DNA of 64,000 bases from a virus (lineage: Duplodnaviria; Caudoviricetes): positions 1 through 64,000 of IMG/VR virus record IMGVR_UViG_3300042997_000909, one strand, 5' to 3'. The notes below the pieces were generated by a model, which did not search any database, was not told the DNA's origin, and saw only the letters and a program-made list of their open reading frames with translations. Numbering within the stretch: position 1 is the stretch's first letter; each line of letters opens with the position of its first letter. A program made the translations under genes and the position numbers. Shown here piece by piece: positions 1-18,341 of the stretch.

Positions 1-3000
1 CTTGCAAAGCAATCATTGATTACTCCACAAGATTTGACTCAGACTTTGTCATTGTTAAAAAACTATGTTGCTACTCATAAGTTTGCAAGCATAGATGATA
101 AGACTGACTCAATTAACCAAATACGTGGTGCATTAAAAGATGTGATTTTAAATCTTTCAAAAGTTGATGAATCTTATAGACAAGTTTTATTCAATCAGAT
201 AGATGCGTTTGTTGATACACTTCAACCAAAGTCAGATTATATTCCAATAAACTCTATTGCAGATGATGCAAATCTTTCAAATGTTCTTGTAACATTTGCT
301 GATAATAGAATGGTTGAGGCTTTAGATATTGAAGGTGTTTTGTTTGAGATAGCAGAAGATGGTTCTGTTAATGAAATAGATATGACGCAGGTTGTAAATC
401 AAAAGGCAGCACGTCCTGCAGATTGGTCTGATGCGAATGATGGTAAGCAAGTATTCAAAGAAGATTTTCTCATGTCTGGATTAACAGTAAATGCTGTTGA
501 CCCAGGTGAGCAAGAAACTGTAATGGGTGAGTTAAATAAAATGGCATCACCATCTTCAGGTATAAAAATTACTGCTGTTAAGTTAAGTGAGATTGGTGAC
601 ATGCGTGTAACACGTATGAAAGAATTAGCAAATACTGATACAGAAAAAGCTGGTCTTATTAACAGAGAGCATGAGACTTTTGAGAATTCAACTCAGGTTG
701 CATATCTTGAGTCTACACCAAATGGTAAAGTGCTTACAGTGTCACGTCCAAAAGCAAGTGAGCAAGACTTTGCACTTGTAGGTGAGATCCTAGCAACAGG
801 TCAAAAGTTTCACATTTATTCAATGGACAACTTTGTATTTGTTTCTAGTGACAACACAACAGAAAAACTGGATGTTACAAATCCTGGGCACTTAGCATTA
901 TTAAAAGCAATGTCTTTGAAAAAAGTGGGAACTGTTACTGAGGATATGCAAGATTCAGATATTGCGTCTATTGTTGCTTCTCAAAAACTTTATGAGAACT
1001 TTAAAGAAAAGATTGCGTACAAAGTACAAACAGCATTTGCATCTGGAACATCAGTAGAAGTAACTGATGACTTTTTACAGATGTATGATTTTACAAATTC
1101 AAGGTCAACTGCTCCTGTAAAAACATCATTAAAAGAACTTGTAAATAAAAATCCTCAGTTTAGTAAAACAGTAACTGTTGTTACGCGAGATGCTAATGGT
1201 GAGGTATTGACAGAAGAGGAACGCAAACTTCCATTTTACTATACAAAGGAAATGGATTACAAACTAAAGTATGTTGTATACAAGCAGGTTAAGTTTCTTG
1301 CAGGTAATGAGTCTATAAAAATAACAACTCCTGATGGTAAGGTTGTATATATTACAGAATTTCAATACGCAAATGAGGTTTTAAATTTAGAGGGACAGTT
1401 GAATGATTTGTTCAAAGCTGAAAATGAAAGACTTGTTGACCTTGTAAATAGAAACCAATCACTATACAGAGTTGCTAAGACAACACAATTTGTTGTAAAG
1501 TTTCCAAGCGATGGTTCAATTTCATATGCACTTGTTGATAGAGTTCCACAATTAGAGAATCCAGAATTCTTTGCCAAGTTTATTACAGTTGTTTCAGATG
1601 TTATTAATCCACAAAAAGGTACAGTAAAAGCAAACACTGTTAAAGCAATGAACTTTAATACATATGAGTTCAAGCCTCAATCAATGAAGGGTGGTAAAGG
1701 CTTTGCATTGTCAATAGGGTTTGCTGTTTCACAACCATTACCAGTTCAAGGTAGTAACATCAAAGAAACAAGATTACAAATTGAAATACGTCCTTACAGT
1801 AGAGGAACAGGAAGAGAAAAGTATGTTCCAATTATTGGAACAACTACAAAAGAAAAAAGTAGGTACAATATTATATTACCAGAAGCTGAAATAAATAAAC
1901 TTGCAAAAGCCCTTAAGTCAGGAGCAACTGTAGAGCGTGTTAAAGCTGAAGTACCTTCTTTGGCAAATCTTGATTTGAATAAAGCTGATGAGTTATTACA
2001 ATTTTATTCAACAGTATTTGACTTGGTAAAACTTCCATCAACACCAGACAGTGTAAAATCATTGGCTATGGCTGTTGAACAAGCACAAACAGACTTTACA
2101 CAGCTTGTAATGAATACTGTGACAAAGCGATTTAAAGACAATCCAATTGATCCAGATACAAACAAAGGTGTGTATGATGATTTTCTTGCAGCAATAAAAG
2201 AAGACTTTGGTGATAATTTTGAAGTTGACAATCTATTTGCATACGAAAATGCTGAAGGTAAAGAAATTCTAAACATTCAATCTCCTGATAGTGCAGGTGA
2301 CATATACCAAGCACGTTCTACGTATAATAGGTCAATGAAAAACATTGTTATATTAGAGTCTTCAGGAAGAAGGTCTTTTAAACTTGTATCTAAAGCTGCA
2401 GTCAATCTTGCCAATAATGACGCAAGTTCTGAAAACTTAGATCACACTCAAGCTGAAAAGGATATAATCCAGGATGTAGCAGATAAAGAAAATGCTTCTG
2501 TAAAAGTTACTCCAGAAAATCCAACTGGTGGTCCAATACCATTAAGTAATACTGGACAAGAGGATGTAACAAAAGATACTGATGAAGATAAAGAGGATGA
2601 AGATGATGACGTTTTAGACATTCCTCCATTTTCTATTGTGGTTGATACAGATTTTGAAGTAGCAACTCAACAAGACATTGCATCTGAAGCAGAATGGTTA
2701 GCAGAAAACTTACCACAATTTGGACTTGATACATCATCACTTGGTGATATTATCAACCTTGCGCGTATAGATGGTACTGTGCTTGGTATGTTTAAAGACA
2801 AGATAATTTATCTTAATGAGGCAGTTACTGGAAAAGGCACTGTGTTTCATGAGGCATTCCACGGTGTATTTAGATATCTTCTTTCTGAGAATGAGCGTAA
2901 GGCATTAATCACACAGGTGATGGATGATCCTAAACATTCAAGCAAATTTTCAGCTCAGGCAGTTAAAGACTTTGCAAGAATTAGAAATCTTTCTGTTACA

Positions 3001-6000
3001 AATTATGATACACTTGTAGAGTTGATAGCTGAAGAAGTACTTGCTGATGGGTTCCAGACTTATATGCAAAAAGCAAGAACGTCTGCACCAAAAACAGCAA
3101 TGCAAAGATTCTTTGAAACACTTAAAAGAATTATTAACTTCTTTATCAAAAACAGAAATCAGATTGACTATGTATATGATCGCGTTAAACGTGGTCACTA
3201 CAAAACAGCATCCATAAAATCTAATGTTTTTGATGGACAAGTTGCATTTGAATTAATACCAGGATTGAATCAGTACTATCTAAATGAAGAAGGTAATGTT
3301 GCTAGAGCTAAATCAGTATTGTCAGTTGGTGAACAAGACCAACTTATCAATATGATTGTTGGTGTAATGTTCCAAGATAAAGTTCAATCAGATACATTTG
3401 AAACTAGATTCCAACGTGCTGCAGACAAAATACTTACTGAAGTATTCAGTATGGAAAAACTTGTTGCTCAAAATCCTGAGAAACGCGAACTAATAGAAAA
3501 GAAGTATAGCAAGTTAATTTCTACATACAGGTTTATGCTTGGTGCTAGAATGAAAGGGTTAAATGTAAATGACATTAACCTTACTGGTAATACTAAGTAT
3601 GACAGTAAAACAGATGTAAACAAGGAAGCTCTTATAAATGGTGAGTCTATAGATAATACTATGGGTCAATATTCATTTGAGGTTTTGCGTAGACTTGCTA
3701 AAGACAAATATGATAAAGCAAACTCAATAAAAATTCAACGTGACAATGATGAGTTTACATTAGACTCAGAAGAAATAGAAAATACATTTACTGGTGAAAA
3801 TGCAAATGAAGCACAAGATGATGATGCACAATCTTTAAAAGAAGAAACAGAAAATAATGACTTTGATGCAGGAATGGGTGAACAAAATCGCATGGACTCA
3901 TATGTATCACAAATCAGAAGATTCTTTTCTACACTGAGAAGTGATGAATTTGATGAGGAAACTGGTATCAATTTTCCACGTATGATTGATGGTCAAGTTC
4001 TTTTTCCAACATTATTGAAAATTACTGCAGGTATTGATCCAAGAAACATCATTGACACTATTGGTGTAATGGCTAAGCAAATGACAAAAGATGGTTATAC
4101 TGCTGTTGGAAAAGACTTAGAAACAATCTATGATGAAATTCAGACAAGAACAAAATCAAATACTGAAGGTGTTGCACAATCTAATAAACAATTGCGTGAG
4201 CTACTAACTGAAGTACTGCATGGTGTTGAACTTAACTATGTAATGTTCAATGTCGCATCACCTAAGAAAGTTTCAATGGATGAAATGTCATCTGGTGAAG
4301 CATTGACAAAAAATGAGTCAGTCAACTTTAGAATGTTTGATAAAGTAATGGATGCTGATAATACAAAAAAACGTAATGACATCATTGCAAGTTTTATCAA
4401 AAAGCATTCTACTGAAGCATCTACTTCAGAATTTATTGAAGCAGTAAAATACTTAAAAGAATTTGCTACAAGTTTTATGAGTACTCCTGATATACTTTCT
4501 AGTGTAACAGGACAAACAATGAAGTTAGAACAACTTACCAATCAGTTGCATGATGCATTGACCACTATTGGAATGACAATACCAAGATCTTTGGTAGAAC
4601 TTTCTATAATGGCAATGAATGTTGAAGAGAATGGTGTGGCACTAGATATAGATCCACAACTTAAAAAGTTTTATGATGTAAATGAAGGGTTTGTAAAACA
4701 ACAACAATACCTTGAAAAAGACTTTTTTAAAAGTTTAAAAGTGGTGCTTGATTCAGCGTATTTAGAAAATGGTAAGCCAAACTCAGGAATAAGAAACATA
4801 CTTGATGATGAGAAATCAAAAAATAAGGATGCAAAACGTATGCTTGTAATTTTGAAAAAAGCAGCAGCATATGTTGTCAAGTATGATCCAACAGATATAC
4901 CTAGTGTGATCAAAAACGCTGAAGGTAAATCAATATATCGCTTTGCAAAATACAATCCACTTATTCTTCTTGGACAACGTCTAAACACAATGACACTTGA
5001 AGAAGCATTGGCAGATGATCCTTATTTTAAAAACACACTTCAAGCATTCTTAGAAAACAACGTATTGTTTGGTGGTTTACTTTCTGGTGAGACAAATGAA
5101 GATACAGTAAAAATAGAATTGTTTTTGAAAAACTTTACTGTGGCAATGTTTGGTGGAGTTCAACAACGTATTGGTGATGTTGCTAAAAAAGGACAGACGT
5201 TTAAATCTATAGATAAAAGGTCACTGCACATGTTGCAAGTTCTTGCATTCATGGATAGAAAAACTGTTAGTGATAAATTTGGTAGAGAAATAACAACCTA
5301 CTTCAGATCATTTCATCAGTTGGAAGCAACGTCTACAAACTTCTTGATTTCATCTTTATATGAACCTTTTACATCTAGAGATAAAAAAGTTACCAATGAC
5401 AGAGGTCAATTACTTTATCAAGGTAAACACTTAAAGATTGTTGAAGACCTTGTTGGTATTGTAAGTCAAGAATATAACAGGATGTCACGCGAATGGAATC
5501 GCAGACTTGACTTAAAACGTGATTATGAAAGTGGTAAAAGCAATGAGCTTGTAAATAAGTACAATGCAGTACTTGAAGACGATGGCGTTACAATAAACGT
5601 TGATGATGAAAGTTTGCGTGCATACAAGTTTAATATTCTAAGTGACTTCTTTGAAGCAGATGAAAATGCATCATTAAATCAAGACCTTATTGAACTTGCA
5701 AAAAATCAAGTACCATTTGACAAGATTGATTCAAAAGAACTTCTTACTGCATTAGATGAATATGCAAAGAAAGAATTTGGAGCATACCTTGAAGAACTTG
5801 AAAATCTTGGTTTAATTTCTAAAACACCAATATTACCTTCTGATCAAAAAGTTGAGGTAAGACCAGCTGTAGCAGCACGTTTACCAAAAGAATACTATAC
5901 TTCTGATATGCTTCCAAAATCTATAAAAGAAGGTTTTGCAAAAGCAAACATATCAGATAAGTATTCTCAACCATATGGTACAAAAGAAGATGGTTCTCTT

Positions 6001-9000
6001 GACCCAATAGAAAATTTACTATTTGACATGTTCATGAGTAACTGGAGAAATGGTCTTCATGTTAATCAACTTATGGATGGTGATATGGCGTTAAATGTTA
6101 AAAACGCTCAGGATTATGTAAAACGTCTTAAGAAAATTGTTGCAACTGGTTCCAATATGAAAAATGGTACGCACAAAGTTGCTTACATGAATACTATTGT
6201 AGCATTTGCACATGAAGATATGCCTCAGTATGGTCCATACTATACTAGAGAAGAAATACTTGGTGACTTTACTATTCCTAGCGAAGAGGTTCGTGATGAA
6301 CTTCTTGAGGGTTATGACAAAGCAATTGCTGGTGCAAAAGAAAGTATCAATGGTCGTACAGTAAAATGGGCAGACATGATGCGTGAAGTTTTTGATGGTC
6401 AAAGTATTTCATCACTTATGCACCAAATGGACATGCATGAAACATTGGGGAGACTTGATGAACGTGCAACATACATCATGATTGCAAAACATTATAGAGC
6501 ATTGACTGAAGATGAAACAAGATATCTTGAATCATTTAAGATTGTAAACAACGCTAAGAAGACAATTACAGCTGACAGAAATATTTATCACAAATTGTCT
6601 GAAGGTTATATTGATAGAACAGATGTTAGCACATTAAACGTTAAACCTGTTGAAGGTGAGTCTATGGCAGATGCAATTGCAAGAATATATGATGAATTGC
6701 ATGGAATGTATATGTCTGCTTATGACTTACGTAAAGATCGTGAGATTGCAGCGACAATTGCAGATTCAGTGAATGAAGTTGCTAGAATTAATAAAGAGTT
6801 GGAAGACATCTATAGAAATATCCATGCATATTATGCACCATTACCACATCGTGAAATATTGCATAACATTCTGAACTCAATGGAACTTTTCCAGATAGAT
6901 CAGGTGATGGATACAACTGCATCTAAAAATGCAACATTGTTACCACTTGATGTTATGCGTTCTGATAAAACTGATGATGGGTATATCAATCTTAGAATGG
7001 CTGCACTGGATGTTCCAAACAGTGCAAAATACTTACAGGTAGAAACAAGTGGTGTAAAAGAAAAAGCAAAGCACTCTGTACAAGCTAAACTTTTGTTACC
7101 AGCAAATATCGCTGATGAACAATTTAGAGAAGTAATAGAAATTGAAGCACAAAAAGCTGGTAATATTTTAACTGAAGGTGATATTCTGGCAATGGAAAAC
7201 ATAAAGTATTCGTTAAACAATTTTCAGTTATCATTACGCCAGGCTACTAAAGCAAGACTGTTATACTTTACAGAAGTTCTGAGAAAAGGTGATGACTTCC
7301 AGTTAGGAAAAATCTTTACAATGATTCGCGAGAGTCTTGAATTACAAAATGCTCCAAAAAATATCCTAGACATGTTTGCTGTTAAAGCTGATGGTAAACC
7401 AGTTTTCAGTCCAAACTTGAGTCTTATAAGAAGCACACTTGAATACTACATGCTTGCTCAGTATAGTAAGAACGTAACAGACGAGAAGGTTTCAGGATTT
7501 AAGAACTTCCATGAAAGTGGTTTTGGGTATAACGTCTTAGTTGATCCTGTCACAAATCAGGTTATAACAACAGAGGAGTATGCTACTAATCCAAAAGCAT
7601 TTGAGGGTAGAAATCTACGCTCAAGACCACTAACAGTCAGTGTTGAAACTCAAGCAGATGGAAGTAAACTTTATTTTGTAGAAGCTATTATACCAAAACC
7701 ATTCTTTGAGAATGAGCAGCAAGAAAGATTCTTTAAAGAAAATCTTACCAAGATGTTTGGTGTACGTATTCCTACTGAAGACAAACGTTCAATGATTGCT
7801 ATTAAAGTGGTTGACTATGTTGATTCATCAAAACTTAACAACATTATTGTACCACAATTTGTACACATGCTGTCTGGTTCTGACTTTGACATTGACTCAT
7901 TGTTTGGTAGAATGATGTCATACTACAAAAATGGTAAAGGAAACTATTCCCTATATGGGAACTATGATCAATACAAGGATCCAAGAGTTGGTGAATTTAT
8001 TGAGTTCATGCACTACATGTCTAAGCATGAAGACATTGGACCTTTAATCAAGCAGCGTAAGAAAGAACTTGTTGAACAAGGTACAATAGAAATGACATCT
8101 AATGGGCCATTGTTTGAGGTTATTGACAGTCTTGGATATACACTTGAAGAATTAGGAGAACACTTTGACCAGAAAGTTGTAAAATCAAAATACGCTGAGC
8201 AAAAAGACTTTACAAGTTATATGTTTGAATTGACCAAGGAGTCAAAACAAATGTATGTTACTGCAAAAGAAATAGCTGAACAAAATCCAGAAAATAGAGA
8301 ACTTGCCAAAACAAGAAATGTTTATGGTAAAGAACTTGCTGATTTAAAAGCAGTTAGAAAGACTTCTGTAGACGATCAAAGATTGCTAAAAGCAAAGATG
8401 AACTACATTGATACATTGTTTGAGTATCAAGCAATTATGGATGTGTTGTCTAAGTTTGACATGCCAAGCAACATGGGAGAGTTTAGTGCAAGACCAGCGT
8501 TCTCACAAATGGTTTCACCAAAATATCAAAATGCAAACTTGACTGCAAGCTTGCAAATACTTGGAAATGAAGCTGTGTTTAAATATCTATATATTAACCA
8601 ACGTTCTTCAACACAAGAATTCAAAGACATCTTAGATAAATTTGGTATTGACTTAAAGGCAATTACAAAGAAATCAAACTTGTTTACTCCTACTAGTATG
8701 ATAGATTCAAAGGTAGAAAACAATATGAACAAAGATGGTATTGGACGTACTGCTGTAATGAACAAGTTTCTATCTCTTGCAAGTCAATACAACCTTAAGC
8801 TTTCTGACAAAGGCATGGTATGGATGTATCAAAACATGAATAAGGATATTATTCTGAAAGATACATTTGGCCAGTTGAATGACAAAGACCAAAGAGTTAT
8901 ATCTATCATAGGTAACATTTTAGGTATGTTTGCTGATGGTGCTAAAGATCCAATTCCAGCAGCTCTTCAAATGAATGAAATAAACGCAAGTACCACACTT

Positions 9001-11664
9001 GCAATGATTGGTGTTGGACTTGATCCAGAGTTTGCAGTAGCATTTAACTTCTTACCTGAAGTACGTAAGGCTGCACTTGCAGTTCAGCAATCACAATTTG
9101 CATTGTCTGAAGACTTAGACCAAGATTATTTATTCTATAACCAGGCGATTAGCAACCAGCTTTCTGAATTGATTGAAAACAATGAAGACTCTTTCAATAG
9201 GTTAAAAGCAGCAGGATTCTTTACTGAGAAATCATTTAAAGATTATGTTGTAATGGATAATCCACTAGCAGTTAGAATTGGATTTGAACCAAAGAAACTT
9301 AGTTTGTATGCGTTGAAAAACAATCAGTTAGTACCTTCAGCTATTGGGTTTGATATGGTATATAACTCTAGTGAGGAAATGCTTACTGAAGAAGAAATGA
9401 CAATGGTATTGCTTACATACTATGGAAAACAAGCACAGCAAACATGGGCTATTAATAGAGCTGCAAGTATCACAAATCTTTTCAAAAGATTAAATCCTAG
9501 TCTTGTTGCTTTTGACAAAATGCGTGATAACATTGTTGAGTTAAAAGAAGATGAGAAGTTGTTTACAAAAGAGTCAGCAGCTGATTTGTTTAATGATGAG
9601 CAAGTATGGTCTGTCTTAGAAGAAGCACTTAATGATGCAAACGAGCAATTTTCAAAAATATTCTTGGAAAGAACTCCATTCTTTAAACCAATAACAGGAG
9701 CGTTTAAGGGTTACTTTGAAGATCCAAAAACTATTGCTAATACACTTACAAGTTTCTTAGCATTGAATAAATTCAAAATGACATTCCCTGGTTCTAGAAA
9801 ACTTGATAATCCAAAACAACAAGCAATCATAGACAATGATGATGAAATGATTTTGAAAACATTCTCACCTGACTACTGGTTCACAAATGATTTGTTTGCT
9901 CAAGTAGAGAAGTTTAGAGAAAAGTATCCTAACAATGAATTTTTAAAACTGTTACGTTCAGCAGACTCTAAGAATACTGCTACTGTTATTTACAATGGTA
10001 AAACATATCAAGGCATTACAGAACGATTCATTACAATGATTAGCAAAGCAAAAGTTAAAGGTGAATACGCAAGTAAAATTGCTGATGATATTGCTTCCTT
10101 GTACAATAGTGGTATGGTAGAAGAAAGACAGTTTGTTAAAAATCTATTCTATCATGATTTAGTACGCACAGGTCTTCAGTATAAAGAAGGTTCATTCATG
10201 GCGTACATGCCAGCTGAACTTAAGATTCCTGTTTCAAATTACATAGATGATTTCATAACAGGTATTCAATCTACAATAGGTAGTAAGAATTTTGAAAATG
10301 ATTTTCAGAACTTCATTAAAAACTACACTGGTGAATCTACAGATCAGGGTGTTATAACTTTCTTTGATGAGATGTTTAATCAGTTGGCATACGCAGCGTC
10401 ATCTGAAAACAACAATCAGAAAATACCAAAATTCAAAGATAAAAATAACGCTAGAGGTGTAATGTTTACCATCAATTCAAAAAGTCCACAGTTTTCAAAA
10501 CCAATTGTGAAAGCGTTTTTGGATCCAAGTAAACCAGCAGATAAAGAAACATTACCTATTGCAAAAGTACAATCAATGCAATATGTGCTTGATGCTTTAA
10601 ACTTACAGGTTCCTGAAGGTACTGACTTAACAAAATTAGATAGAATTAATATTTCTGACAGTTTTGGTGATGAGGTTACAATCAACTTGTCAAATGAAAA
10701 TCAAAAAGCAAATACAATCTTAGGTAAGATGTTTGGAATTAAACGTGATGTAAGTGAACCTGATTCTACTGAGTTTATATTTCCAAGTATCTTACGTGTT
10801 GGTACAAAAACTTATGTGCTACAAGGTACAGATGGAAATGCTGCATCAGGAAAATCAATTGGCTCAAACCTTTATGATTCAATTCTTGGTAAAACAGCAA
10901 TGACAATTGTGGGAACATTTGCTAAGTACAAAGCAATACCAGCACAATATGCATCTGAGGCATTAAGTCCAATAGCATTTACATCAAAAGATGCAGATGC
11001 TTACAAACGATTTATTGACAAGCAAGAAGCAATTGTGTTTAACACAACAGTTGTGGATACATCAAAAGAGAATTCACCTAAAGCTGATACACCTGTTGAG
11101 CTTGAAAACACAATCATAACTGGTGATGATATCAGCGCAGATGAGTTGGCAAAACAAGCACCAAAAGATACAGTAGAAGGAATATCTTCTGAGTCAGGTG
11201 CGTCAATGTCACAACTTCAATTTGGTGATGACTTGCTTGCACAGATTTTAGCAAATGTAAAAGGTGAGCAGAAAGGTGATGCAGCTGAAAAAGAAGTCCC
11301 TAAATTACAAAGAGGTAGATATGTTTCATACAATGGCAACACATACATTGTTACTCAGCAAAATGATAATGGTACATGGCAAATATATAACCCATTGCTA
11401 GAAGGAACTGATGCTAAAATCTCAGTTGCAGAAGCTAATATGAAGCCATTAAATATGATTGCAAAAATTGTTGAGTACAAAGATTCTGAGTATATTGTGA
11501 CTTCTAAAAATACTATCATATCTTTGAAGTCTAATAAGATGATGAAGTGGGCTGAGAATGATGGTAATAGAAAAGCAATTCTTGGACTTGCTTCTCAGAA
11601 CAGCACTATCATCAAGCCAAACAATAGACCAAGCATAGATCCAACAGACGAAAATAATTGTTAG
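1..11664 (+). CDS. Giant virion-packaged RNA polymerase polyprotein (crAss-like two-barrel vRNAP) with an upstream zincin-like metallopeptidase motif; 5'-truncated
   Basis: Frame is open from base 1, so the TTG at 16 is probably not the true start. RIP motif at 7765-7773 and GSDFDIDSL catalytic motif (DFDID at 7882-7896) as in crAss-like vRNAPs. HEAFH at 2848-2862 with downstream EEVLAD. Ends in TAG. Confidence 0.92.
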   Translation, partial: LAKQSLITPQDLTQTLSLLKNYVATHKFASIDDKTDSINQIRGALKDVILNLSKVDESYRQVLFNQIDAFVDTLQPKSDYIPINSIADDANLSNVLVTFADNRMVEALDIEGVLFEIAEDGSVNEIDMTQVVNQKAARPADWSDANDGKQVFKEDFLMSGLTVNAVDPGEQETVMGELNKMASPSSGIKITAVKLSEIGDMRVTRMKELANTDTEKAGLINREHETFENSTQVAYLESTPNGKVLTVSRPKASEQDFALVGEILATGQKFHIYSMDNFVFVSSDNTTEKLDVTNPGHLALLKAMSLKKVGTVTEDMQDSDIASIVASQKLYENFKEKIAYKVQTAFASGTSVEVTDDFLQMYDFTNSRSTAPVKTSLKELVNKNPQFSKTVTVVTRDANGEVLTEEERKLPFYYTKEMDYKLKYVVYKQVKFLAGNESIKITTPDGKVVYITEFQYANEVLNLEGQLNDLFKAENERLVDLVNRNQSLYRVAKTTQFVVKFPSDGSISYALVDRVPQLENPEFFAKFITVVSDVINPQKGTVKANTVKAMNFNTYEFKPQSMKGGKGFALSIGFAVSQPLPVQGSNIKETRLQIEIRPYSRGTGREKYVPIIGTTTKEKSRYNIILPEAEINKLAKALKSGATVERVKAEVPSLANLDLNKADELLQFYSTVFDLVKLPSTPDSVKSLAMAVEQAQTDFTQLVMNTVTKRFKDNPIDPDTNKGVYDDFLAAIKEDFGDNFEVDNLFAYENAEGKEILNIQSPDSAGDIYQARSTYNRSMKNIVILESSGRRSFKLVSKAAVNLANNDASSENLDHTQAEKDIIQDVADKENASVKVTPENPTGGPIPLSNTGQEDVTKDTDEDKEDEDDDVLDIPPFSIVVDTDFEVATQQDIASEAEWLAENLPQFGLDTSSLGDIINLARIDGTVLGMFKDKIIYLNEAVTGKGTVFHEAFHGVFRYLLSENERKALITQVMDDPKHSSKFSAQAVKDFARIRNLSVTNYDTLVELIAEEVLADGFQTYMQKARTSAPKTAMQRFFETLKRIINFFIKNRNQIDYVYDRVKRGHYKTASIKSNVFDGQVAFELIPGLNQYYLNEEGNVARAKSVLSVGEQDQLINMIVGVMFQDKVQSDTFETRFQRAADKILTEVFSMEKLVAQNPEKRELIEKKYSKLISTYRFMLGARMKGLNVNDINLTGNTKYDSKTDVNKEALINGESIDNTMGQYSFEVLRRLAKDKYDKANSIKIQRDNDEFTLDSEEIENTFTGENANEAQDDDAQSLKEETENNDFDAGMGEQNRMDSYVSQIRRFFSTLRSDEFDEETGINFPRMIDGQVLFPTLLKITAGIDPRNIIDTIGVMAKQMTKDGYTAVGKDLETIYDEIQTRTKSNTEGVAQSNKQLRELLTEVLHGVELNYVMFNVASPKKVSMDEMSSGEALTKNESVNFRMFDKVMDADNTKKRNDIIASFIKKHSTEASTSEFIEAVKYLKEFATSFMSTPDILSSVTGQTMKLEQLTNQLHDALTTIGMTIPRSLVELSIMAMNVEENGVALDIDPQLKKFYDVNEGFVKQQQYLEKDFFKSLKVVLDSAYLENGKPNSGIRNILDDEKSKNKDAKRMLVILKKAAAYVVKYDPTDIPSVIKNAEGKSIYRFAKYNPLILLGQRLNTMTLEEALADDPYFKNTLQAFLENNVLFGGLLSGETNEDTVKIELFLKNFTVAMFGGVQQRIGDVAKKGQTFKSIDKRSLHMLQVLAFMDRKTVSDKFGREITTYFRSFHQLEATSTNFLISSLYEPFTSRDKKVTNDRGQLLYQGKHLKIVEDLVGIVSQEYNRMSREWNRRLDLKRDYESGKSNELVNKYNAVLEDDGVTINVDDESLRAYKFNILSDFFEADENASLNQDLIELAKNQVPFDKIDSKELLTALDEYAKKEFGAYLEELENLGLISKTPILPSDQKVEVRPAVAARLPKEYYTSDMLPKSIKEGFAKANISDKYSQPYGTKEDGSLDPIENLLFDMFMSNWRNGLHVNQLMDGDMALNVKNAQDYVKRLKKIVATGSNMKNGTHKVAYMNTIVAFAHEDMPQYGPYYTREEILGDFTIPSEEVRDELLEGYDKAIAGAKESINGRTVKWADMMREVFDGQSISSLMHQMDMHETLGRLDERATYIMIAKHYRALTEDETRYLESFKIVNNAKKTITADRNIYHKLSEGYIDRTDVSTLNVKPVEGESMADAIARIYDELHGMYMSAYDLRKDREIAATIADSVNEVARINKELEDIYRNIHAYYAPLPHREILHNILNSMELFQIDQVMDTTASKNATLLPLDVMRSDKTDDGYINLRMAALDVPNSAKYLQVETSGVKEKAKHSVQAKLLLPANIADEQFREVIEIEAQKAGNILTEGDILAMENIKYSLNNFQLSLRQATKARLLYFTEVLRKGDDFQLGKIFTMIRESLELQNAPKNILDMFAVKADGKPVFSPNLSLIRSTLEYYMLAQYSKNVTDEKVSGFKNFHESGFGYNVLVDPVTNQVITTEEYATNPKAFEGRNLRSRPLTVSVETQADGSKLYFVEAIIPKPFFENEQQERFFKENLTKMFGVRIPTEDKRSMIAIKVVDYVDSSKLNNIIVPQFVHMLSGSDFDIDSLFGRMMSYYKNGKGNYSLYGNYDQYKDPRVGEFIEFMHYMSKHEDIGPLIKQRKKELVEQGTIEMTSNGPLFEVIDSLGYTLEELGEHFDQKVVKSKYAEQKDFTSYMFELTKESKQMYVTAKEIAEQNPENRELAKTRNVYGKELADLKAVRKTSVDDQRLLKAKMNYIDTLFEYQAIMDVLSKFDMPSNMGEFSARPAFSQMVSPKYQNANLTASLQILGNEAVFKYLYINQRSSTQEFKDILDKFGIDLKAITKKSNLFTPTSMIDSKVENNMNKDGIGRTAVMNKFLSLASQYNLKLSDKGMVWMYQNMNKDIILKDTFGQLNDKDQRVISIIGNILGMFADGAKDPIPAALQMNEINASTTLAMIGVGLDPEFAVAFNFLPEVRKAALAVQQSQFALSEDLDQDYLFYNQAISNQLSELIENNEDSFNRLKAAGFFTEKSFKDYVVMDNPLAVRIGFEPKKLSLYALKNNQLVPSAIGFDMVYNSSEEMLTEEEMTMVLLTYYGKQAQQTWAINRAASITNLFKRLNPSLVAFDKMRDNIVELKEDEKLFTKESAADLFNDEQVWSVLEEALNDANEQFSKIFLERTPFFKPITGAFKGYFEDPKTIANTLTSFLALNKFKMTFPGSRKLDNPKQQAIIDNDDEMILKTFSPDYWFTNDLFAQVEKFREKYPNNEFLKLLRSADSKNTATVIYNGKTYQGITERFITMISKAKVKGEYASKIADDIASLYNSGMVEERQFVKNLFYHDLVRTGLQYKEGSFMAYMPAELKIPVSNYIDDFITGIQSTIGSKNFENDFQNFIKNYTGESTDQGVITFFDEMFNQLAYAASSENNNQKIPKFKDKNNARGVMFTINSKSPQFSKPIVKAFLDPSKPADKETLPIAKVQSMQYVLDALNLQVPEGTDLTKLDRINISDSFGDEVTINLSNENQKANTILGKMFGIKRDVSEPDSTEFIFPSILRVGTKTYVLQGTDGNAASGKSIGSNLYDSILGKTAMTIVGTFAKYKAIPAQYASEALSPIAFTSKDADAYKRFIDKQEAIVFNTTVVDTSKENSPKADTPVELENTIITGDDISADELAKQAPKDTVEGISSESGASMSQLQFGDDLLAQILANVKGEQKGDAAEKEVPKLQRGRYVSYNGNTYIVTQQNDNGTWQIYNPLLEGTDAKISVAEANMKPLNMIAKIVEYKDSEYIVTSKNTIISLKSNKMMKWAENDGNRKAILGLASQNSTIIKPNNRPSIDPTDENNC

Positions 11665-11666
11665 TT

Positions 11667-12254
11667 ATGGCGTTAAAGTGTAGAACAGATATCAAAAAGG
11701 CAATAATCAAAAAAGCGATTGAGCCAAATGTAAGTAAGAATGTGCAGCAGATATCATCTGACACATTGTTTATTAGTAATGAAGCATTTGCCAGTGGTAA
11801 ATCTCAAGTATTCAGAGTTGCTGAAAGCATTGTCAACAGAACTAATAAAAGTTTTGAAGGTAATGTAGCATATCGCAGAGAGATGTCCAATGGTCAAGAG
11901 GTTGTTTTTAATCCATCACAGGATTTGGTAACAATTTATTACAATGAATATCTAAAAGCTCTTACTGAAGCAGAGGCACGTGCAATTCAACGTGCAGATG
12001 CTGAGCGAGCTGGTATACAGTATGATGATGATTATCTTTTTGATAATGAAGAATCTAGTAATCCTCTTTATGATATGTATGAAGATATGGCAAACCTAGA
12101 ACTAACTCCAGCAGTAATTGAGTATCTTTATAGTGACAGTAGTAAAAGATTGCGCATAGCCAATTTTGCACAAGAAGCAAAAAACTTAGTTGCAAACATG
12201 CGCGGTATGAACTACACAAATAATGAAATTCTTGAAAAAATAAAGTGTCTATAA
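11667..12254 (+). CDS. Small (195 aa) protein in the virion cargo cluster with one Cys near each terminus
   Basis: ATG at 11667, 2 nt after the upstream stop; abuts the next ATG at 12255. Sequence MALKC...KIKCL. Confidence 0.8.
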   Translation: MALKCRTDIKKAIIKKAIEPNVSKNVQQISSDTLFISNEAFASGKSQVFRVAESIVNRTNKSFEGNVAYRREMSNGQEVVFNPSQDLVTIYYNEYLKALTEAEARAIQRADAERAGIQYDDDYLFDNEESSNPLYDMYEDMANLELTPAVIEYLYSDSSKRLRIANFAQEAKNLVANMRGMNYTNNEILEKIKCL

Positions 12255-15200
12255 ATGAGCGCATGTCCAAATCCTAATGACCAAGCTTGGAAAGACTTGG
12301 TAATCGCTTTGAGTAGCGAGGCAGATGCAATGACAGCATTTGTAAGAAATAATAATGAAGTCCCTACAGTAGAAAAAGCAAAAGAGATTTTAAAAAACTT
12401 ACGCATCCAAGATAAGGATGAACAACTTTCTCTTGCATCAGATCAGTTTAAATTAAGCAGATCAGTGCAGCAACGCGCAATGCTTGAAACAGTAAAACTA
12501 CGTTCAAACAAAGCACAGCGAGAAACTATTGAAAAGCTTATCGCGATGAATGACATGTACCAGGACTTTTTGAAGTCTAACATAGACGCAGCAAAAAATG
12601 GTACACCAATAGAAAACACATTAAGCGTATCCAAATTTATTGGTTCTTCAGAATTCAAAGGTGATCCAAAAGAATATGAAGCATTCAAACTCTTTGGAAC
12701 ATTTATGCATGAGTTATTAGAGATTGGTCAAGTAGAGGCGTTGAAAGCAAACAAGACTATTGCACAAATCTTTAATCCAGAGTTTTTTGAAGATGCTTAT
12801 GAGAAGTACACAAAAAAGAATCCTTTTGAAATACAAAAACTTTCTAAGGAAGAAATGTATGAAATGGCATTTGGATTAGTACAACATGTGAATACAAAAA
12901 ATGCAAGTGGATATGTAATCCTACCAGAGGTAACAATCGTTGGTACATCTCTTTCTGGTAGTAAGGTGATTGGGCGTCTTGATATTTTGATGATTGATGC
13001 AGTTGGTCGCGTACATATCTATGACTTTAAAACAAAGAAGATAAAATACCTTACTGAGCGAAATCCTTTTACAGGGCAAGATGAAGTAAACGTAGACAAG
13101 GCTCTGATAGAATTGGCTAATAAAAGATATCCAATTGCAAACACGCCAGGAGTTGCTACTGAGTTTCAAAAAATATCATTGCGTTCAACATATGATGTAT
13201 GGATGATGCAGCTTGATATTTACGATAACATCTTAAAGCAAAGTGGTATTAATGTTTCTAACAAGACCATCTCAGCTTTGATGTATCAGATTGATGAAAA
13301 CACAAACGAGTATGTAGCTAATGCATTGCATGTGTTTGAAGATCAAGAATATTATGACCAAGCGCGTAGTGCAAAAATTGGTACTGATGGTTATTGGTTT
13401 TCAAACATTGACTCAACAGAGGATGTTGTATTTAAAATTAAAAGAGCAGCAGCCCTTGAAATACCAACAGGTGAATACACTGAAGAAGAAATCAAAACTA
13501 AATCACCAGAAGAACTTTTTGACATAAACCCAACAGACAAAAACATGGGTGATTTTGTGAAGGTTCTTGAAAGTGTGATTGATGGTCAGATAAACAAAAT
13601 TTATAGTGACCTTGATGAGGCAAAAAACAAACCTAAGCGTGACGCTAACTATGAAAAACTTTTAGCTGCGCGAAGAGATACTCTTAACAACTTTAAAAAA
13701 ATTGTAGAGAAACTTAAAACTACAAATCCATCTGCACTTGTTAACTCAGCAAACTTTTTTAATGCTCTCAATGTAATGGAGCAAGACTTAGAAACAATGA
13801 GTCAAATCTCAAGAATGGCTCTTGATGCATACATGACTGGTGAACCAAATGATAAGATACGTAACTTAGACAAAGTACGTGAAGCATTCAACAAGAGTGT
13901 TGTTCTTACTACGGTAATAGATGTAATGACTGAGATTGTAAATGAGGCAGCTTCCAATGAAGAGAATGAGATTGGAGTAGACAGTCCTGTGAGACAGCGA
14001 TTAGCTCAATTGAGCATTTATGCAGAGCAGATTCAGTCAGATTTTAAAAAGATTGGTATGGCCAATGCTATCAGTGTACTAAAATCTCCAGGTGAAAGAG
14101 TCTTTACTGAAGTTCAGGAACAAGCACGTCAAGCACTTGAGATTGAATTAGAAAGATTGAAAGAGCAAGTTGAGAAACTTAAAACCAATCCAAAGTTAGG
14201 ATTGTATAAAAATGCAAAAATCAGATTCTTTAGTCTTACAAACAGAAACTTTAGAGAAAAGGTTAAAGAAGCAATGGGTCCAAATGGTAGCATTGTTCTT
14301 GGAGAGATTGATAGACTTGAAAGACGCGTCATGCAAATTGAAATGCTATTACAAGGATTTGAATTTACAGATGAGGCGATGGAAAAATATATCAGTGGTA
14401 TTACTGACCACACATCTCCTTTTTACGCAGGTATGCAAAATCCATATGCTGGTTCTGATACAATTCTTGGAGGCTGGATGATGGACAGTGCGATAGCATC
14501 AGCTTCAAATTCTGATTTAGCCATCTCAGCATTCACAACAATGTTGAAAGACTTTAAAGCACAGGCAGAATATAATGTGATGAATGATGCCAAAATGCAA
14601 AAGTTTGATAGAATGCGTCAGGCGTTATTAAATAAAGGATACTCTGTTGAGACTTTGAACAAAGTAGTTTCTGAATGGAGAGATGTTACTTATTTTAATT
14701 CTAAAACGCAAGAAGTAGAAACTAAAAAGGTTCTTACATATATCAAACCATTTAGTGGTGAGTATGAAAATACTTATAAAGGTTTCCAACAACAGCTACG
14801 CATACTAAATAAAGAAGTTTATGAGCTGCGTGCTGTATATAATGAGAAGTTTGACACTCCAGAAAAAGCTGAGGCAGAAGATAAGTACTTGAAAAAAGTT
14901 ACAGAAAGAGATCAACACAACAACACAATGATTGAGTGGATGTTGGATAATGCTAACCTTCCATATGTGGATGAGTTTTATAATCTTCAATTAAAATTAC
15001 CTCAAGACATACGTGATGCCTTACAAAAGATATATCTTGAACAAGAAGTTATCTTGCACAGTGTAGGTAAAGGTAATGAGGTTCTACTTGAAGAGGCAGA
15101 CTTTGATAGGTTAAAAGAACTTGATGCAGAAGCAAAAAGATTACGTCTTGATGCTATTGATCGTAGCCCTGAGTACGCAGAATATCTTGAGAAGTTTGAT

Positions 15201-18200
15201 GAGCTATATGAGTTTGACACTAATGATAACTTCTTCAGGGTTATGGAGAAGAATGCAGAGGTGCGTTTCTCAGATGATCCAGAAAGGTTAAGCAGCTGGT
15301 ATGCAGATAACACAGTATCACGTCCTACTGCAGACTGGTATGAACAAGTAAATGCACTATATGATGAGCGTTCTCAGTTAATGGAAGGTGATCCTGACAT
15401 TAAAGCACTGATTGACAGAAAGAAACGCATCATGGCGCCATATAAAAATGCTGGTAGATTTAATCCTAAATACTTAACTGAAGAAGAAATCTCAGAACTT
15501 GATGGTATTGAGGCAGAGATTGATGATATTCTTGATGGTAAAAAAGCACAGAAAACAACTTTGTCAAAAGAAGAACGAAGAGAGATTGCTAGAATCACAC
15601 AAGAAATTAGAAAACTTGTATCTTTTGAAATCAACCCTATTTACATAAAGGAGTTTGATACACGTTATAGAATCCTTGAAACTGCTTACAATGAGTTAGC
15701 AATTTCTCAATCAAACTTGGCTGTTGCAAGAACAAAAGGTGTTGATGCAGATATTGCTGAAGCTGAAGACAATGTAATTTTTGCTGTTAGGAGATTTGGA
15801 GAGGTTGAAGCTTCTTTCAAAACATGGTTTGAAAAAAATCACTATAATAAATACGAAAGCATCACTGTTAAGAAAGACTTAAAGGCCTACAAGGTTCCTA
15901 AATCATTTAACTTTGAAAGACTACCTTCTGCAAGTGTTGCAGATAAATATATGGAAACAGTACCAAATCCAAAATATTACAAAGTAAAACGTTTGAGAAT
16001 TGGTAACTGGACATTAGATGGTAGAAAACTTACAAATAAAGAAATAGAAGACCTTCAACAAAAACCTGATGAGATACGCGCACTACATGTTTCTGGTAGA
16101 TTGAATATGAAACCAGGAGCGTACAATGAAGCATACTTAAAAGGACCTGAAGGTATTCCATTACCAAAAGAGTTAACACTGAACGATGAAGGGCATTATG
16201 TTATAGATCCTAAGAAAGGTCCTGGTAGAAACATAAATCCAAAGTATCTTGACTTACTCAACAATAAAGAGCAATTTGAGTTCTATAATAGTATGATGGA
16301 TATCTTTTTTGACTTACAACAAAAAATTGAAGGTAGAAAAATTGGATACCAGGTTCCAGGATTTGCTTCATCTTTGATAGAAGGTATTGCAAATGAAAGT
16401 CTTGGAAAAGGTTTTGCTAAGCAATACAATGCTTTTCTTGACAGAAACTTTAAAGCGATGGGTCAGCAAGATATGTCAGAAAACATACATGGTGATATTG
16501 GTGCACGTATAAGAATGAGATTTTCTAATCAGTTAGGAGAAGAGATTCAGTCTTCAGATGCAATAGGTTCATTTATGAAATGGACAACAGAAGCACACAT
16601 GAATATTTCCATGCAAGAAATTGCTCCTAAATCAAAAGGATTTATTGAGTTTATGAAAGTTCAACGTGAGCAGCTTGCAAAAGACATTCTTAAAGGTGAA
16701 GTTTTTGTCACAGATGAGGTAACAGGTAAACGAACAAAGGTTGACATCAAGCAAAAACTTGCTGAGATGGATAACCTTATCAAGATACTTGAGTTTGAAA
16801 ACAATAAGTTCTTGTATGGTATAACAGAAAATGCTACTGATGCAGGAAGAGGTACTAAAAAAATCATTGATGGTTTCTTCAAGTATACCAGCTTTATCAG
16901 AATTGGTTTTGATGTTATCAACCAAACAAAAAACTACACTTCAGGTAACGTTCAGGCTTTCCTGGCTGCGGGAGGCAGCGACAGTGCGCATTACAGTAAA
17001 AGAGATTGGCTTTTTGCAAAAGGTAAAGTATATGGTTATGGTGGTTTCTTATCTAACTATCTTAAAGATTGGGGACGCATTTCAGATTTAACTGAAACTA
17101 CAATGCTTTATAGAATGATGAATCCTGCGCAAAAGGATATTATTAAGTATTTCTCTGACTCATCAGGAACAAAAGGTCGTAGACTTGCTGAAAAACTTGT
17201 GTCTGTAGGTGAACTTGGGTACATGTTACAAGATAAAGGTGATACAGAAATTGCAGTCACAGTGATGTATGCAATTATGAATAACTACAAGTTTGAACAA
17301 ATTGAAAGCATTGATCCTGTTACAGGAGAAAAGATATTCAAACGTGATAGCAAAGGCGAAGTGGTTATGGTTCCATCTCATGAGGCATACATCAAAGACA
17401 AGAATGGTAACTTGGTTATCAGAAATGATGTAAACTATTCTAAGGAGGATGAAAAACGTATAAGAAATATTGTTTATTCTGAGATGCGAAGAGCACAAGG
17501 TAACTATGCTGGTGCAGACCAGACAGAATTTGAAAGTAGGATACTTGGTAAAATGGTATTTTTCTTTAGAAAGTTCTTGGTTCCACAATTCTTGAATAGA
17601 TTTGGTTACTTGCGTCCTAACTGGGAAGGTTCTGAAGTTGCAGTAGGATACTGGCGTGCATTTGCAAAAGCCATGAAATTGTTTGGTGTGGGAAATACAA
17701 TGAAGGAGTTTCTTGTAGGTTCTGATACACTGTCAAAAATGGGCTTGTCAGGTGGTACAAAAACGTATGTTATAAAAGATCCAAAAACAGGAGCTGTTAT
17801 TAAGACAGTAGACGCTGGAGACTTTTATTCAAAGCGTGTGCATCATGCAAGAAGAGATGCAATTGCTATGACATTACTTACAATACTGAGTATGATGTTG
17901 TTGTCTTTTGTAAGACGTAGAGATGACGATGATGAAGAACTCAGCATGCTTGAAGGTAACGCCATACGTGTTATCTGGGGTACAAAATCTGAAACAGTAT
18001 CAATGTTCCCTGTTGGAGATGGTTCTCAGGAGTACGTTAAAAACTTTACCACAGCAATACCATTTGTGCGTGAGTTTTCAGCAACAATCAAGATGTTAAA
18101 TCATGGTTTAAAATATGGTATGGCAATGACAATGAATGGTGGTGAAGAACCAGATCCTGATTATGATTCAGAATTCTATCAAGAAATCTGGAAAGATGCA

Positions 18201-18341
18201 TTTTATTCTAGAAAGTCTGGTGCATATGAAAAAGGTGATGCAAAATTTGGAAAAGATTTTGTTGACCTTACTGGTATTAAAAACTTTAGAGATATACTTG
18301 ATCCTAACTATAGAATTGATGTACTTAAACGTAATCAATAA
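12255..18341 (+). CDS. Large virion cargo/ejection protein with an N-proximal PD-(D/E)XK nuclease-like domain and a C-proximal TM helix
   Basis: GTFMHELLE...PE...GRLDILMID...IYDFKT...QLDIY nuclease signature; long helical middle; hydrophobic AIAMTLLTILSMMLLSFV followed by RRRDDDDEE; position next to the vRNAP. Confidence 0.8.
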   Translation: MSACPNPNDQAWKDLVIALSSEADAMTAFVRNNNEVPTVEKAKEILKNLRIQDKDEQLSLASDQFKLSRSVQQRAMLETVKLRSNKAQRETIEKLIAMNDMYQDFLKSNIDAAKNGTPIENTLSVSKFIGSSEFKGDPKEYEAFKLFGTFMHELLEIGQVEALKANKTIAQIFNPEFFEDAYEKYTKKNPFEIQKLSKEEMYEMAFGLVQHVNTKNASGYVILPEVTIVGTSLSGSKVIGRLDILMIDAVGRVHIYDFKTKKIKYLTERNPFTGQDEVNVDKALIELANKRYPIANTPGVATEFQKISLRSTYDVWMMQLDIYDNILKQSGINVSNKTISALMYQIDENTNEYVANALHVFEDQEYYDQARSAKIGTDGYWFSNIDSTEDVVFKIKRAAALEIPTGEYTEEEIKTKSPEELFDINPTDKNMGDFVKVLESVIDGQINKIYSDLDEAKNKPKRDANYEKLLAARRDTLNNFKKIVEKLKTTNPSALVNSANFFNALNVMEQDLETMSQISRMALDAYMTGEPNDKIRNLDKVREAFNKSVVLTTVIDVMTEIVNEAASNEENEIGVDSPVRQRLAQLSIYAEQIQSDFKKIGMANAISVLKSPGERVFTEVQEQARQALEIELERLKEQVEKLKTNPKLGLYKNAKIRFFSLTNRNFREKVKEAMGPNGSIVLGEIDRLERRVMQIEMLLQGFEFTDEAMEKYISGITDHTSPFYAGMQNPYAGSDTILGGWMMDSAIASASNSDLAISAFTTMLKDFKAQAEYNVMNDAKMQKFDRMRQALLNKGYSVETLNKVVSEWRDVTYFNSKTQEVETKKVLTYIKPFSGEYENTYKGFQQQLRILNKEVYELRAVYNEKFDTPEKAEAEDKYLKKVTERDQHNNTMIEWMLDNANLPYVDEFYNLQLKLPQDIRDALQKIYLEQEVILHSVGKGNEVLLEEADFDRLKELDAEAKRLRLDAIDRSPEYAEYLEKFDELYEFDTNDNFFRVMEKNAEVRFSDDPERLSSWYADNTVSRPTADWYEQVNALYDERSQLMEGDPDIKALIDRKKRIMAPYKNAGRFNPKYLTEEEISELDGIEAEIDDILDGKKAQKTTLSKEERREIARITQEIRKLVSFEINPIYIKEFDTRYRILETAYNELAISQSNLAVARTKGVDADIAEAEDNVIFAVRRFGEVEASFKTWFEKNHYNKYESITVKKDLKAYKVPKSFNFERLPSASVADKYMETVPNPKYYKVKRLRIGNWTLDGRKLTNKEIEDLQQKPDEIRALHVSGRLNMKPGAYNEAYLKGPEGIPLPKELTLNDEGHYVIDPKKGPGRNINPKYLDLLNNKEQFEFYNSMMDIFFDLQQKIEGRKIGYQVPGFASSLIEGIANESLGKGFAKQYNAFLDRNFKAMGQQDMSENIHGDIGARIRMRFSNQLGEEIQSSDAIGSFMKWTTEAHMNISMQEIAPKSKGFIEFMKVQREQLAKDILKGEVFVTDEVTGKRTKVDIKQKLAEMDNLIKILEFENNKFLYGITENATDAGRGTKKIIDGFFKYTSFIRIGFDVINQTKNYTSGNVQAFLAAGGSDSAHYSKRDWLFAKGKVYGYGGFLSNYLKDWGRISDLTETTMLYRMMNPAQKDIIKYFSDSSGTKGRRLAEKLVSVGELGYMLQDKGDTEIAVTVMYAIMNNYKFEQIESIDPVTGEKIFKRDSKGEVVMVPSHEAYIKDKNGNLVIRNDVNYSKEDEKRIRNIVYSEMRRAQGNYAGADQTEFESRILGKMVFFFRKFLVPQFLNRFGYLRPNWEGSEVAVGYWRAFAKAMKLFGVGNTMKEFLVGSDTLSKMGLSGGTKTYVIKDPKTGAVIKTVDAGDFYSKRVHHARRDAIAMTLLTILSMMLLSFVRRRDDDDEELSMLEGNAIRVIWGTKSETVSMFPVGDGSQEYVKNFTTAIPFVREFSATIKMLNHGLKYGMAMTMNGGEEPDPDYDSEFYQEIWKDAFYSRKSGAYEKGDAKFGKDFVDLTGIKNFRDILDPNYRIDVLKRNQ

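Follow-up and report, generated by a model that had tools for sequence, protein, structure and literature searches.

The DNA examined here (the window) comprises 64,000 nucleotides, positions 1 to 64,000 of the IMG/VR virus record IMGVR_UViG_3300042997_000909, and represents the first 64 kb of the 123,450-bp genome of a crAss-like podovirus. Four consecutive genes of this phage encode the cargo proteins P1 to P4, of which P2 is a giant virion RNA polymerase (vRNAP) protein that runs into the window from its left edge. The only cysteines in these four proteins lie at the ends that face one another, and the same placement recurs at the junctions between giant cargo proteins throughout the crassviruses. 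From this pattern, it is probable that in the virion the split cargo proteins are tied to one another by disulfide bonds, each C-terminal end to the next N-terminal end, as a linear chain without branches. In the human gut, no phages are more abundant than the crassviruses, and a rule of terminal Cys residues would bear on the way in which several megadaltons of protein, including proteins of 2,000-4,000 residues, are packed by these phages and leave through a narrow tail. The rule provides a concrete model that is cheaply testable in the cultured phages phi14:2 and crAss001, and it would explain both the free splitting and fusing of the genes between lineages and the purge of Cys elsewhere in the proteins. 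A 2026 paper on N4 urges further study of the three polymerase proteins of crassviruses (PMC13434306).

Cysteine placement and identity of the cargo proteins

The last codon of the giant open reading frame (ORF) that encodes P2 (TGT, 11659-11661) specifies the sole Cys among its 3,887 codons visible in the window. The Cys positions given in the preliminary description for P3 (Cys5 and Cys194) and for P4 (residue 4 alone) are exact. A 127-bp terminal repeat (window 1-127 and genome 123324-123450) identifies the record as a circular assembly, and the giant ORF therefore resumes at the far end of the record, where residues 1-115 of P2 are encoded at genome 122979-123323, beyond the left edge of the window. 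The preliminary description had named many internal Cys residues in this unseen N-terminal part as an observation that would speak against its proposal; the 115 residues, which start with MGCTLT, hold one, Cys3, and the full P2 (4,002 amino acids, aa) has Cys at residues 3 and 4002 only. P1 contains a single Cys at residue 1702 of 1,704, the third from the end (..INSCFK-stop). The earlier observation of four Cys residues at facing termini is thus borne out and proves to be part of a larger pattern of six Cys in four proteins.

Together, P1, P2, P3 and P4 comprise 7,929 aa and contain 6 Cys, compared with approximately 102 expected; the remaining 104 ORFs of the genome contain 390 Cys in 30,407 aa (1.28%). 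Each of the six facing ends carries one of the six Cys residues, and none is found at the N-terminal end of P1 or at the C-terminal end of P4. Among the 104 background ORFs, a Cys is present at residues 2-6 in 3 and in the last six residues in 5. The chance that all six Cys fall within the facing terminal windows, computed given the Cys count of each protein, is approximately 6e-15.

Searches with tblastn and blastp reveal that P2 matches the catalytic subunits of crassvirus RNA polymerases (RNAPs), and nearly all of the 90 tblastn matches belong to named crAss-like or Bacteroides phages or to uncultured gut phages. The motif GSDFDID is invariant in an alignment (A1) of P2, p-crAssphage gp44, crAss001 gp50 and cr110_1, and phi14:2 g066, which is the solved polymerase, has DFDID at residue 1361. 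Residues 1010-1188 of P2 align with residues 2101-2296 of crAss001 gp47, which bears HEAFH at 2157 (hhalign E 4e-5). As judged from these alignments, P2 joins a gp47-type zincin region to a gp50/g066-type two-barrel RNA polymerase. P1 resembles the N-terminal regions of phi14:2 g067 and crAss001 gp47, with residues 408-773 matching residues 245-624 of the latter (hhalign 93%, 3e-7). In blastp searches, P1 matches phi14:2 g067, P2 matches g066 and P4 matches g065, the similarity being weak and partial; for P4, it connects the C-terminal parts of the two proteins (blastp 6e-4). The P1-P2-P3-P4 block is collinear with the RNA-polymerase cargo proteins of phi14:2 and crAss001. The crAss001 proteins gp47, gp49 and gp50 are virion cargo, as identified by mass spectrometry, and must partly unfold to exit the capsid (PMC10172136); the phi14:2 RNA-polymerase cargo proteins were likewise found in virions by mass spectrometry (preprint, annotation notes). 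By the homology of the block to these virion proteins, P1 to P4 are most likely packed in the head and injected.

Sequence searches of Pfam, PHROGs and the PDB with P2, P3 and P4 gave nothing useful, and blastn and tblastn searches of GenBank phages with P3 gave no matches. In 17 sampled homologues of P3, down to 46% identity, both Cys residues are invariant and no further Cys is present. The AlphaFold2 model of P3 (predicted local distance difference test score, pLDDT, 80) consists of an N-terminal domain (6-114), a disordered linker (123-134) and a helical C-terminal domain (133-193), in which the helix ends just before Cys194. A Foldseek search of the PDB with this model returned no match below E 0.001, and a match to ribosome recycling factor was rejected as noise (template modelling score about 0.2). 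The terminal Cys of P2 is kept in relatives (loci L001-L005 and L012-L016), as is the head motif CPN-x-N of P4. The longer form of this motif, M-x-x-C-P-N-x-N, opens the polymerase-bearing protein itself in L079 (2930-2980), which suggests that an acceptor head motif may be reused at different junctions.

The terminal-Cys rule and gene splits in crassviruses

The cargo proteins of reference phages follow the same rule. In phi14:2, a phage with an aerobic marine host, the only Cys of g067 is the final residue (..SNTIC); g066, which begins with MAC and ends in ..QECK, carries Cys at residues 3 and 2179 of 2,180, and the sole Cys of g065 (MSC..) is residue 3. In crAss001, gp47 has a single Cys at residue 2339 of 2,341 and gp49 has Cys 5 only, with Cys at residues 5, 1334 (internal) and 2404 in gp50. 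The p-crAssphage protein gp45 ends in ..SFSCM, with a penultimate Cys, and gp44 starts with MSC. IAS virus and the Suoliviridae phage cr50_1 also obey the rule. The gene for gp47 in crAss001 lies on the strand opposite to those for gp50 and gp49, and the partners in IAS virus are likewise on opposite strands; the Cys pairs are kept in both phages. An origin of the junction codons at the DNA level or in translational coupling is rejected on account of these opposite strands.

A scan of IMG/VR with the polymerase core yielded 80 loci. When grouped by identity of the RNAP core, these make up 28 clusters at 60% and 6 clusters at 40%. Both Cys residues are present at 86 of the 92 junctions between Cys-poor giant proteins, and the remaining 6 are chain ends or one miscalled start. 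The Cys of the upstream partner lies 0-5 residues from the C-terminal end (mostly 1), and that of the next protein is at position 3-6 (mostly 3). In the last 300 aa of the P1-like proteins, the terminal Cys is the sole invariant column. No such terminal Cys is found where the last cargo protein meets the ordinary gene after it. Several loci seemingly have no N-terminal Cys; these were dismissed as exceptions, being start-codon miscalls in which an M-S/D-C start lies 14-34 codons past the first ATG. L021 has a short P3 (MPCKIQ..KIKCL). The conservation and co-occurrence of the terminal Cys across Crassvirales, on which the preliminary description had made its proposal depend, are borne out, with pairs of C-terminal and N-terminal Cys at each of the cargo junctions in 28 clades and 5 reference phages and no junction with a Cys on one side only. 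As an aid to annotation, the terminal Cys fixes the true starts of the giant genes, for which first-ATG calls are wrong in approximately 1/5 of the loci, and marks which proteins belong to the injected set.

A comparison of the clades reveals that the split points differ and that a Cys pair is present at each split, the matching unsplit stretch elsewhere being without Cys. The cut of the gut type (between gp47 and gp50, or between gp45 and gp44) maps to approximately residues 1230-1300 of P2, which is continuous and Cys-free there. Conversely, the cut between P1 and P2 maps within crAss001 gp47 (hhalign), which is continuous and Cys-free at that place. Thus, phi14:2 (g067-g066-g065) and crAss001 (gp47-gp50-gp49) resemble the present phage in having homologous proteins with the DFDID and zincin motifs and the terminal-Cys rule but differ from it in having three proteins instead of four and no P3 adaptor; their first split falls inside P2, whereas the split between P1 and P2 falls inside their gp47.

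Fusions provide the converse observation. The C-terminal domain of P3 (its final 55 residues) is fused to the body of P2 in L018 and L020, where the pair ..ENNC/M..KC is absent and the pair ..KIKCL/M..CPN to P4 is retained. L033, L037, L043 and cr50_1 open with one fused giant protein that has no N-terminal Cys. Hidden Markov models of the C-terminal end of P1 and the N-terminal end of P2 did not locate the fusion point in the fused giants of L033, L037 and L043, and the fusion argument at the junction of P1 and P2 therefore rests on the hhalign alignment with crAss001 gp47. Additionally, in L037, an ordinary ORF of 246 aa (16718-17458) lies between ..KLEKEC-stop and MACKYKYN, and the pair is kept, which indicates that the Cys pair is independent of gene adjacency. 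The pairing of each C-terminal end with the next N-terminal end, as originally proposed, is thus strongly backed by co-occurrence, by survival without adjacency and by loss on fusion. A Cys pair is thus present at each place where the long protein is cut, and nowhere else, which is the pattern to be expected if a covalent link stood in for the missing peptide bond.

Several loci carry further rearrangements. In L043 (395-20752), one uninterrupted ORF exceeds 6,786 aa, has only one Cys (residue 410, internal) and runs off the locus; it appears to represent the cargo chain in completely fused form. The ORF of 246 aa, which is normal in Cys, lies between chain partners not only in L037 but also in L038. 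In L039 (9581-14911), the equivalent stretch is fragmented into several ORFs and lacks the C-terminal Cys. The insertion in L037 and L038 and the disruption in L039 may be due to a mobile element, for example an intron or a homing endonuclease.

A probable disulfide chain and its alternatives

In the proposed chain, each protein would be purged of Cys except for one residue 0-2 positions from its C-terminal end and/or one at residue 3-5 of its N-terminal end, and the C-terminal Cys would form a bond with the N-terminal Cys of the next protein inside the assembled virion. The four polypeptides would thereby become one unbranched chain of approximately 7,900 residues, a counterpart of the one fused polypeptide that other crassviruses have. 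One thiol per end would permit only linear products, with side stubs of at most 5 residues at each joint; head-to-tail circles within one protein are rejected, as P1 and P4 hold one Cys each. This arrangement would allow packing in fixed proportions and transit of a narrow tail channel by one protein after another. The ends would probably first dock non-covalently and become bonded once the released virion is oxidized, and host reductants would part the subunits in the cytoplasm. The strictly terminal position of the Cys, the short stubs and the purge elsewhere fit a chain that would have to be unfolded and threaded.

Disulfide bonds between subunits are present in crassvirus virions (PMC10172136), and a bond of the proposed kind has been observed in another podophage. 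The structure of the packed pre-ejectosome of cyanophage A4, determined by cryo-electron microscopy, contains a disulfide between gp27 Cys1715 and gp26 Cys5 (PMC12002296). According to the A-4L genome, neither gp27 (1,717 aa) nor gp26 (1,114 aa) has any further Cys. A4 (Anabaena phage A-4L, Saffermanviridae) therefore resembles the present chain in that adjacent giant ejection proteins carry lone Cys residues at their facing ends, but it has one link between two proteins, compared with three links between four here; it has no RNA polymerase cargo, and no fission and fusion series is known there. No homology between A4 gp26 or gp27 and P1 to P4 is detected (blastp best E 0.015; phmmer none); by this comparison, A4 is an analogue and not a relative.

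The ejection proteins of Schitoviridae (N4 gp50-52 and DEV gp71-73) are Cys-free, which has been attributed to their passage through the periplasm (PMC11445570), and the single N4-type chain of 3,500 aa, arranged as beads on a string, is thought to aid ejection (PMC13434306). These proteins resemble P1 to P4 in that a giant virion RNA polymerase and its partners are ejected through the envelope and Cys is strongly purged. In the N4-type phages, however, there are no Cys at all, and the polymerase is on one polypeptide, whereas here the cargo is split, with a Cys pair for each split, and the complete absence of Cys that characterizes Schitoviridae is not seen, since six conserved terminal Cys are kept. 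The fold family of the polymerase also differs, being of the two-barrel DFDxD type here and T7-like in N4. Literature searches found no prior description of the terminal-Cys rule in crassviruses; the phi14:2 preprint does not mention cysteine, and the crAss001 paper (PMC10172136) is silent on the cysteines of the cargo proteins. The nearest known counterparts of the rule are the single A4 bond and the Cys purge of N4.

Several observations weigh against a disulfide chain. In crAss001 gp50, the C-terminal Cys lies 8 residues short of the end, and one internal Cys is also present; p-crAssphage gp47 (857 aa; L008:5066-7639) has a lone penultimate Cys, for which there is no partner in the Cys-free gp46. 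The vRNAPs of gut phages hold up to 23 internal Cys, which are potential sites of mispairing, and no specificity code was found that would keep the three junctions from mispairing. Charge complementarity between donor tails and acceptor heads is not significant (Spearman -0.18, p 0.16); junction 2 nonetheless pairs an acidic tail with a basic head. The crAss001 maps do not resolve the cargo. Virions assemble in a reducing cytoplasm and gut crassviruses inhabit an anoxic habitat, so that the bond could form only after release or exposure to air. Finally, the role seen for the A4 bond is static, in that it stabilizes a folded symmetric pre-ejectosome, and is not a demonstrated role in threading.

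Two side observations concern the same proteins. The cr110_1 homologue of p-crAssphage gp47 has no Cys, and the chain rule leaves the Cys of the p-crAssphage protein unexplained. The internal Cys content of the vRNAPs is 0.1-0.5% in L027-L091 (clades that include the gut crAss phages) and 0.02-0.1% in the clade of the present phage (L012-L026); the purge may be relaxed in anoxic habitats.

A bolder form of the proposal, in which the whole RNA-polymerase machinery would be injected as one disulfide-stitched thread of 0.6-0.9 MDa and cut into active subunits in the reducing cytoplasm, is put forward only tentatively and is the less probable outcome. The disulfides would then be redox-cleavable stand-ins for peptide bonds and would act as a redox timer for the start of infection, and gene fission and fusion would be nearly neutral while a Cys pair marks each cut. 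On this view, podophages outside the crassviruses, A4 among them, may have evolved terminal-Cys linking separately.

The main rival explanation is that the disulfides only lock a folded, static cargo assembly in the head, which would not be threaded as one chain. The bonds would give stability and fixed proportions and would be broken, or the complex dismantled, before or during ejection. The A4 bond, which lies in a five-fold ring at the place where the C-terminal helix of gp27 enters a cleft of gp26, has been described as stabilizing this ring and not as a rule or a chain (PMC12002296). A comparable arrangement is suggested by the C-terminal motifs of P1 and P3, which look helical, and by the helix that precedes Cys194 in the P3 model. 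A stabilizing bond could sit anywhere on an interface, though, whereas here the Cys residues lie 0-5 residues from the chain ends in all clades, with the C-terminal Cys of crAss001 gp50 as the exception, and other Cys are purged. This placement is in keeping with a topological constraint, for example transit of a channel, and the fused single polypeptides of more than 6,700 aa (L043) show that one continuous thread is viable. A purely static lock is thus considered unlikely.

The paired terminal Cys could instead bridge a metal, for example Zn or Fe, or the ends could dock through them non-covalently. Two thiols that are brought together can share a metal, and the evidence from pairing and fission alone does not distinguish this arrangement from a disulfide. 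There is, however, one Cys per end, with no conserved His, Asp, Glu or second Cys beside it, which makes a normal four-ligand metal site impossible, and the sole solved analogue, A4, has a disulfide. Metal bridging or docking is accordingly regarded as improbable. The interpretation offered in the preliminary description, in which each C-terminal end is linked to the next N-terminal end by a disulfide or a shared metal, therefore holds in part: the pairing of the ends is supported, and the shared metal is not, given that neither end has a conserved His, Asp or second Cys nearby.

Slightly less probable still is a different thiol chemistry or partner, such as homotypic dimers, acylation for membrane anchoring, thioester-type ligation, or attachment to the portal or capsid. 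Homotypic bonds remain compatible with the sequence alone, and the heads MGC, MSC and MAC resemble eukaryotic acylation motifs. In particular, the P2 start MGCTLTTEQ.. (L007:1156-1190) resembles MGCTLS, the myristoylation and palmitoylation head of eukaryotic G-alpha-i proteins, a likeness that is most likely a coincidence. Such chemistries leave unexplained the matching numbers of C-terminal and N-terminal Cys at each junction, the Cys-free outer ends of the chain and the joint loss of both Cys on fusion, and the N-terminal Cys is not preceded by a signal peptide or lipobox. A bacterial lipoprotein was rejected because the Cys, at residue 3-6, is not preceded by a hydrophobic leader. A split intein with protein trans-splicing was also rejected. 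It would require fragments of tens of residues, the first starting with Cys at the C-terminal end of one protein and the second having a final Asn ahead of Cys, Ser or Thr in the next, and these could not be accommodated where the Cys lies 0-5 residues from the C-terminal end and at residues 3-6 of the next N-terminal end.

That the pattern arose by chance, or by shared ancestry with no function, is so improbable as to be negligible: many of the loci are close relatives, and raw counts overstate their independence, but the rule is obeyed by 28 clusters at 60% identity and by 6 at 40%, at non-homologous split points and, in the present genome alone, against a chance placement of approximately 6e-15.

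Gene layout and neighbouring features

The chain genes and the motifs referred to above are listed in Table 1. The circular assembly was opened inside the giant polymerase gene, and a linear annotation would give two truncated pieces and lose the MGC start.

Table 1. Positions of the cargo genes, the junction Cys of P2 and the polymerase and zincin motifs (window coordinates unless marked otherwise)
Feature	Coordinates	Strand	Description	Basis
P1	genome 117853-122967, outside the window		1,704 aa; directly precedes P2	
P2, giant virion RNA polymerase protein	1-11664	+	residues 116-4002 of 4,002	ORF list and circular reconstruction
P3, 195-aa two-domain adaptor	11667-12254	+	Cys5 (11679-11681), Cys194 (12246-12248)	
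P4, 2,028-aa cargo protein	12255-18341	+	sole Cys is residue 4 (12264-12266, MSACPNPN); last link	
Cys4002, final residue of P2 (..DPTDENNC-stop)	11659-11661 (TGT)	+	donor end of junction 2	
Zincin motif HEAFH	2848-2862	+	P2 residues 1065-1069	translation and hhalign
RNA polymerase catalytic motif GSDFDID	7876-7896	+	DFDID at P2 residue 2743	translation and alignment

The chain proteins are also low in His (0.8%) and Trp (0.3-0.8%), as counted for P2 and P4 (window 1-18341). Three further large proteins of the genome are Cys-free: a protein of 895 aa directly upstream of the chain (genome 115166-117853), one of 1,046 aa approximately 10 kb further up (genome 104054-107194) and one of 444 aa approximately 5 kb downstream (window 23110-24444). 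These proteins may be channel-forming cargo, analogous to crAss001 gp45 and gp46; no homology was found to support this identity. The opposite composition is observed outside the window at genome 85519-91258, where five successive ORFs have 3.8-6.0% Cys, with up to 25 Cys each, and probably encode external tail or fibre proteins rich in disulfides.

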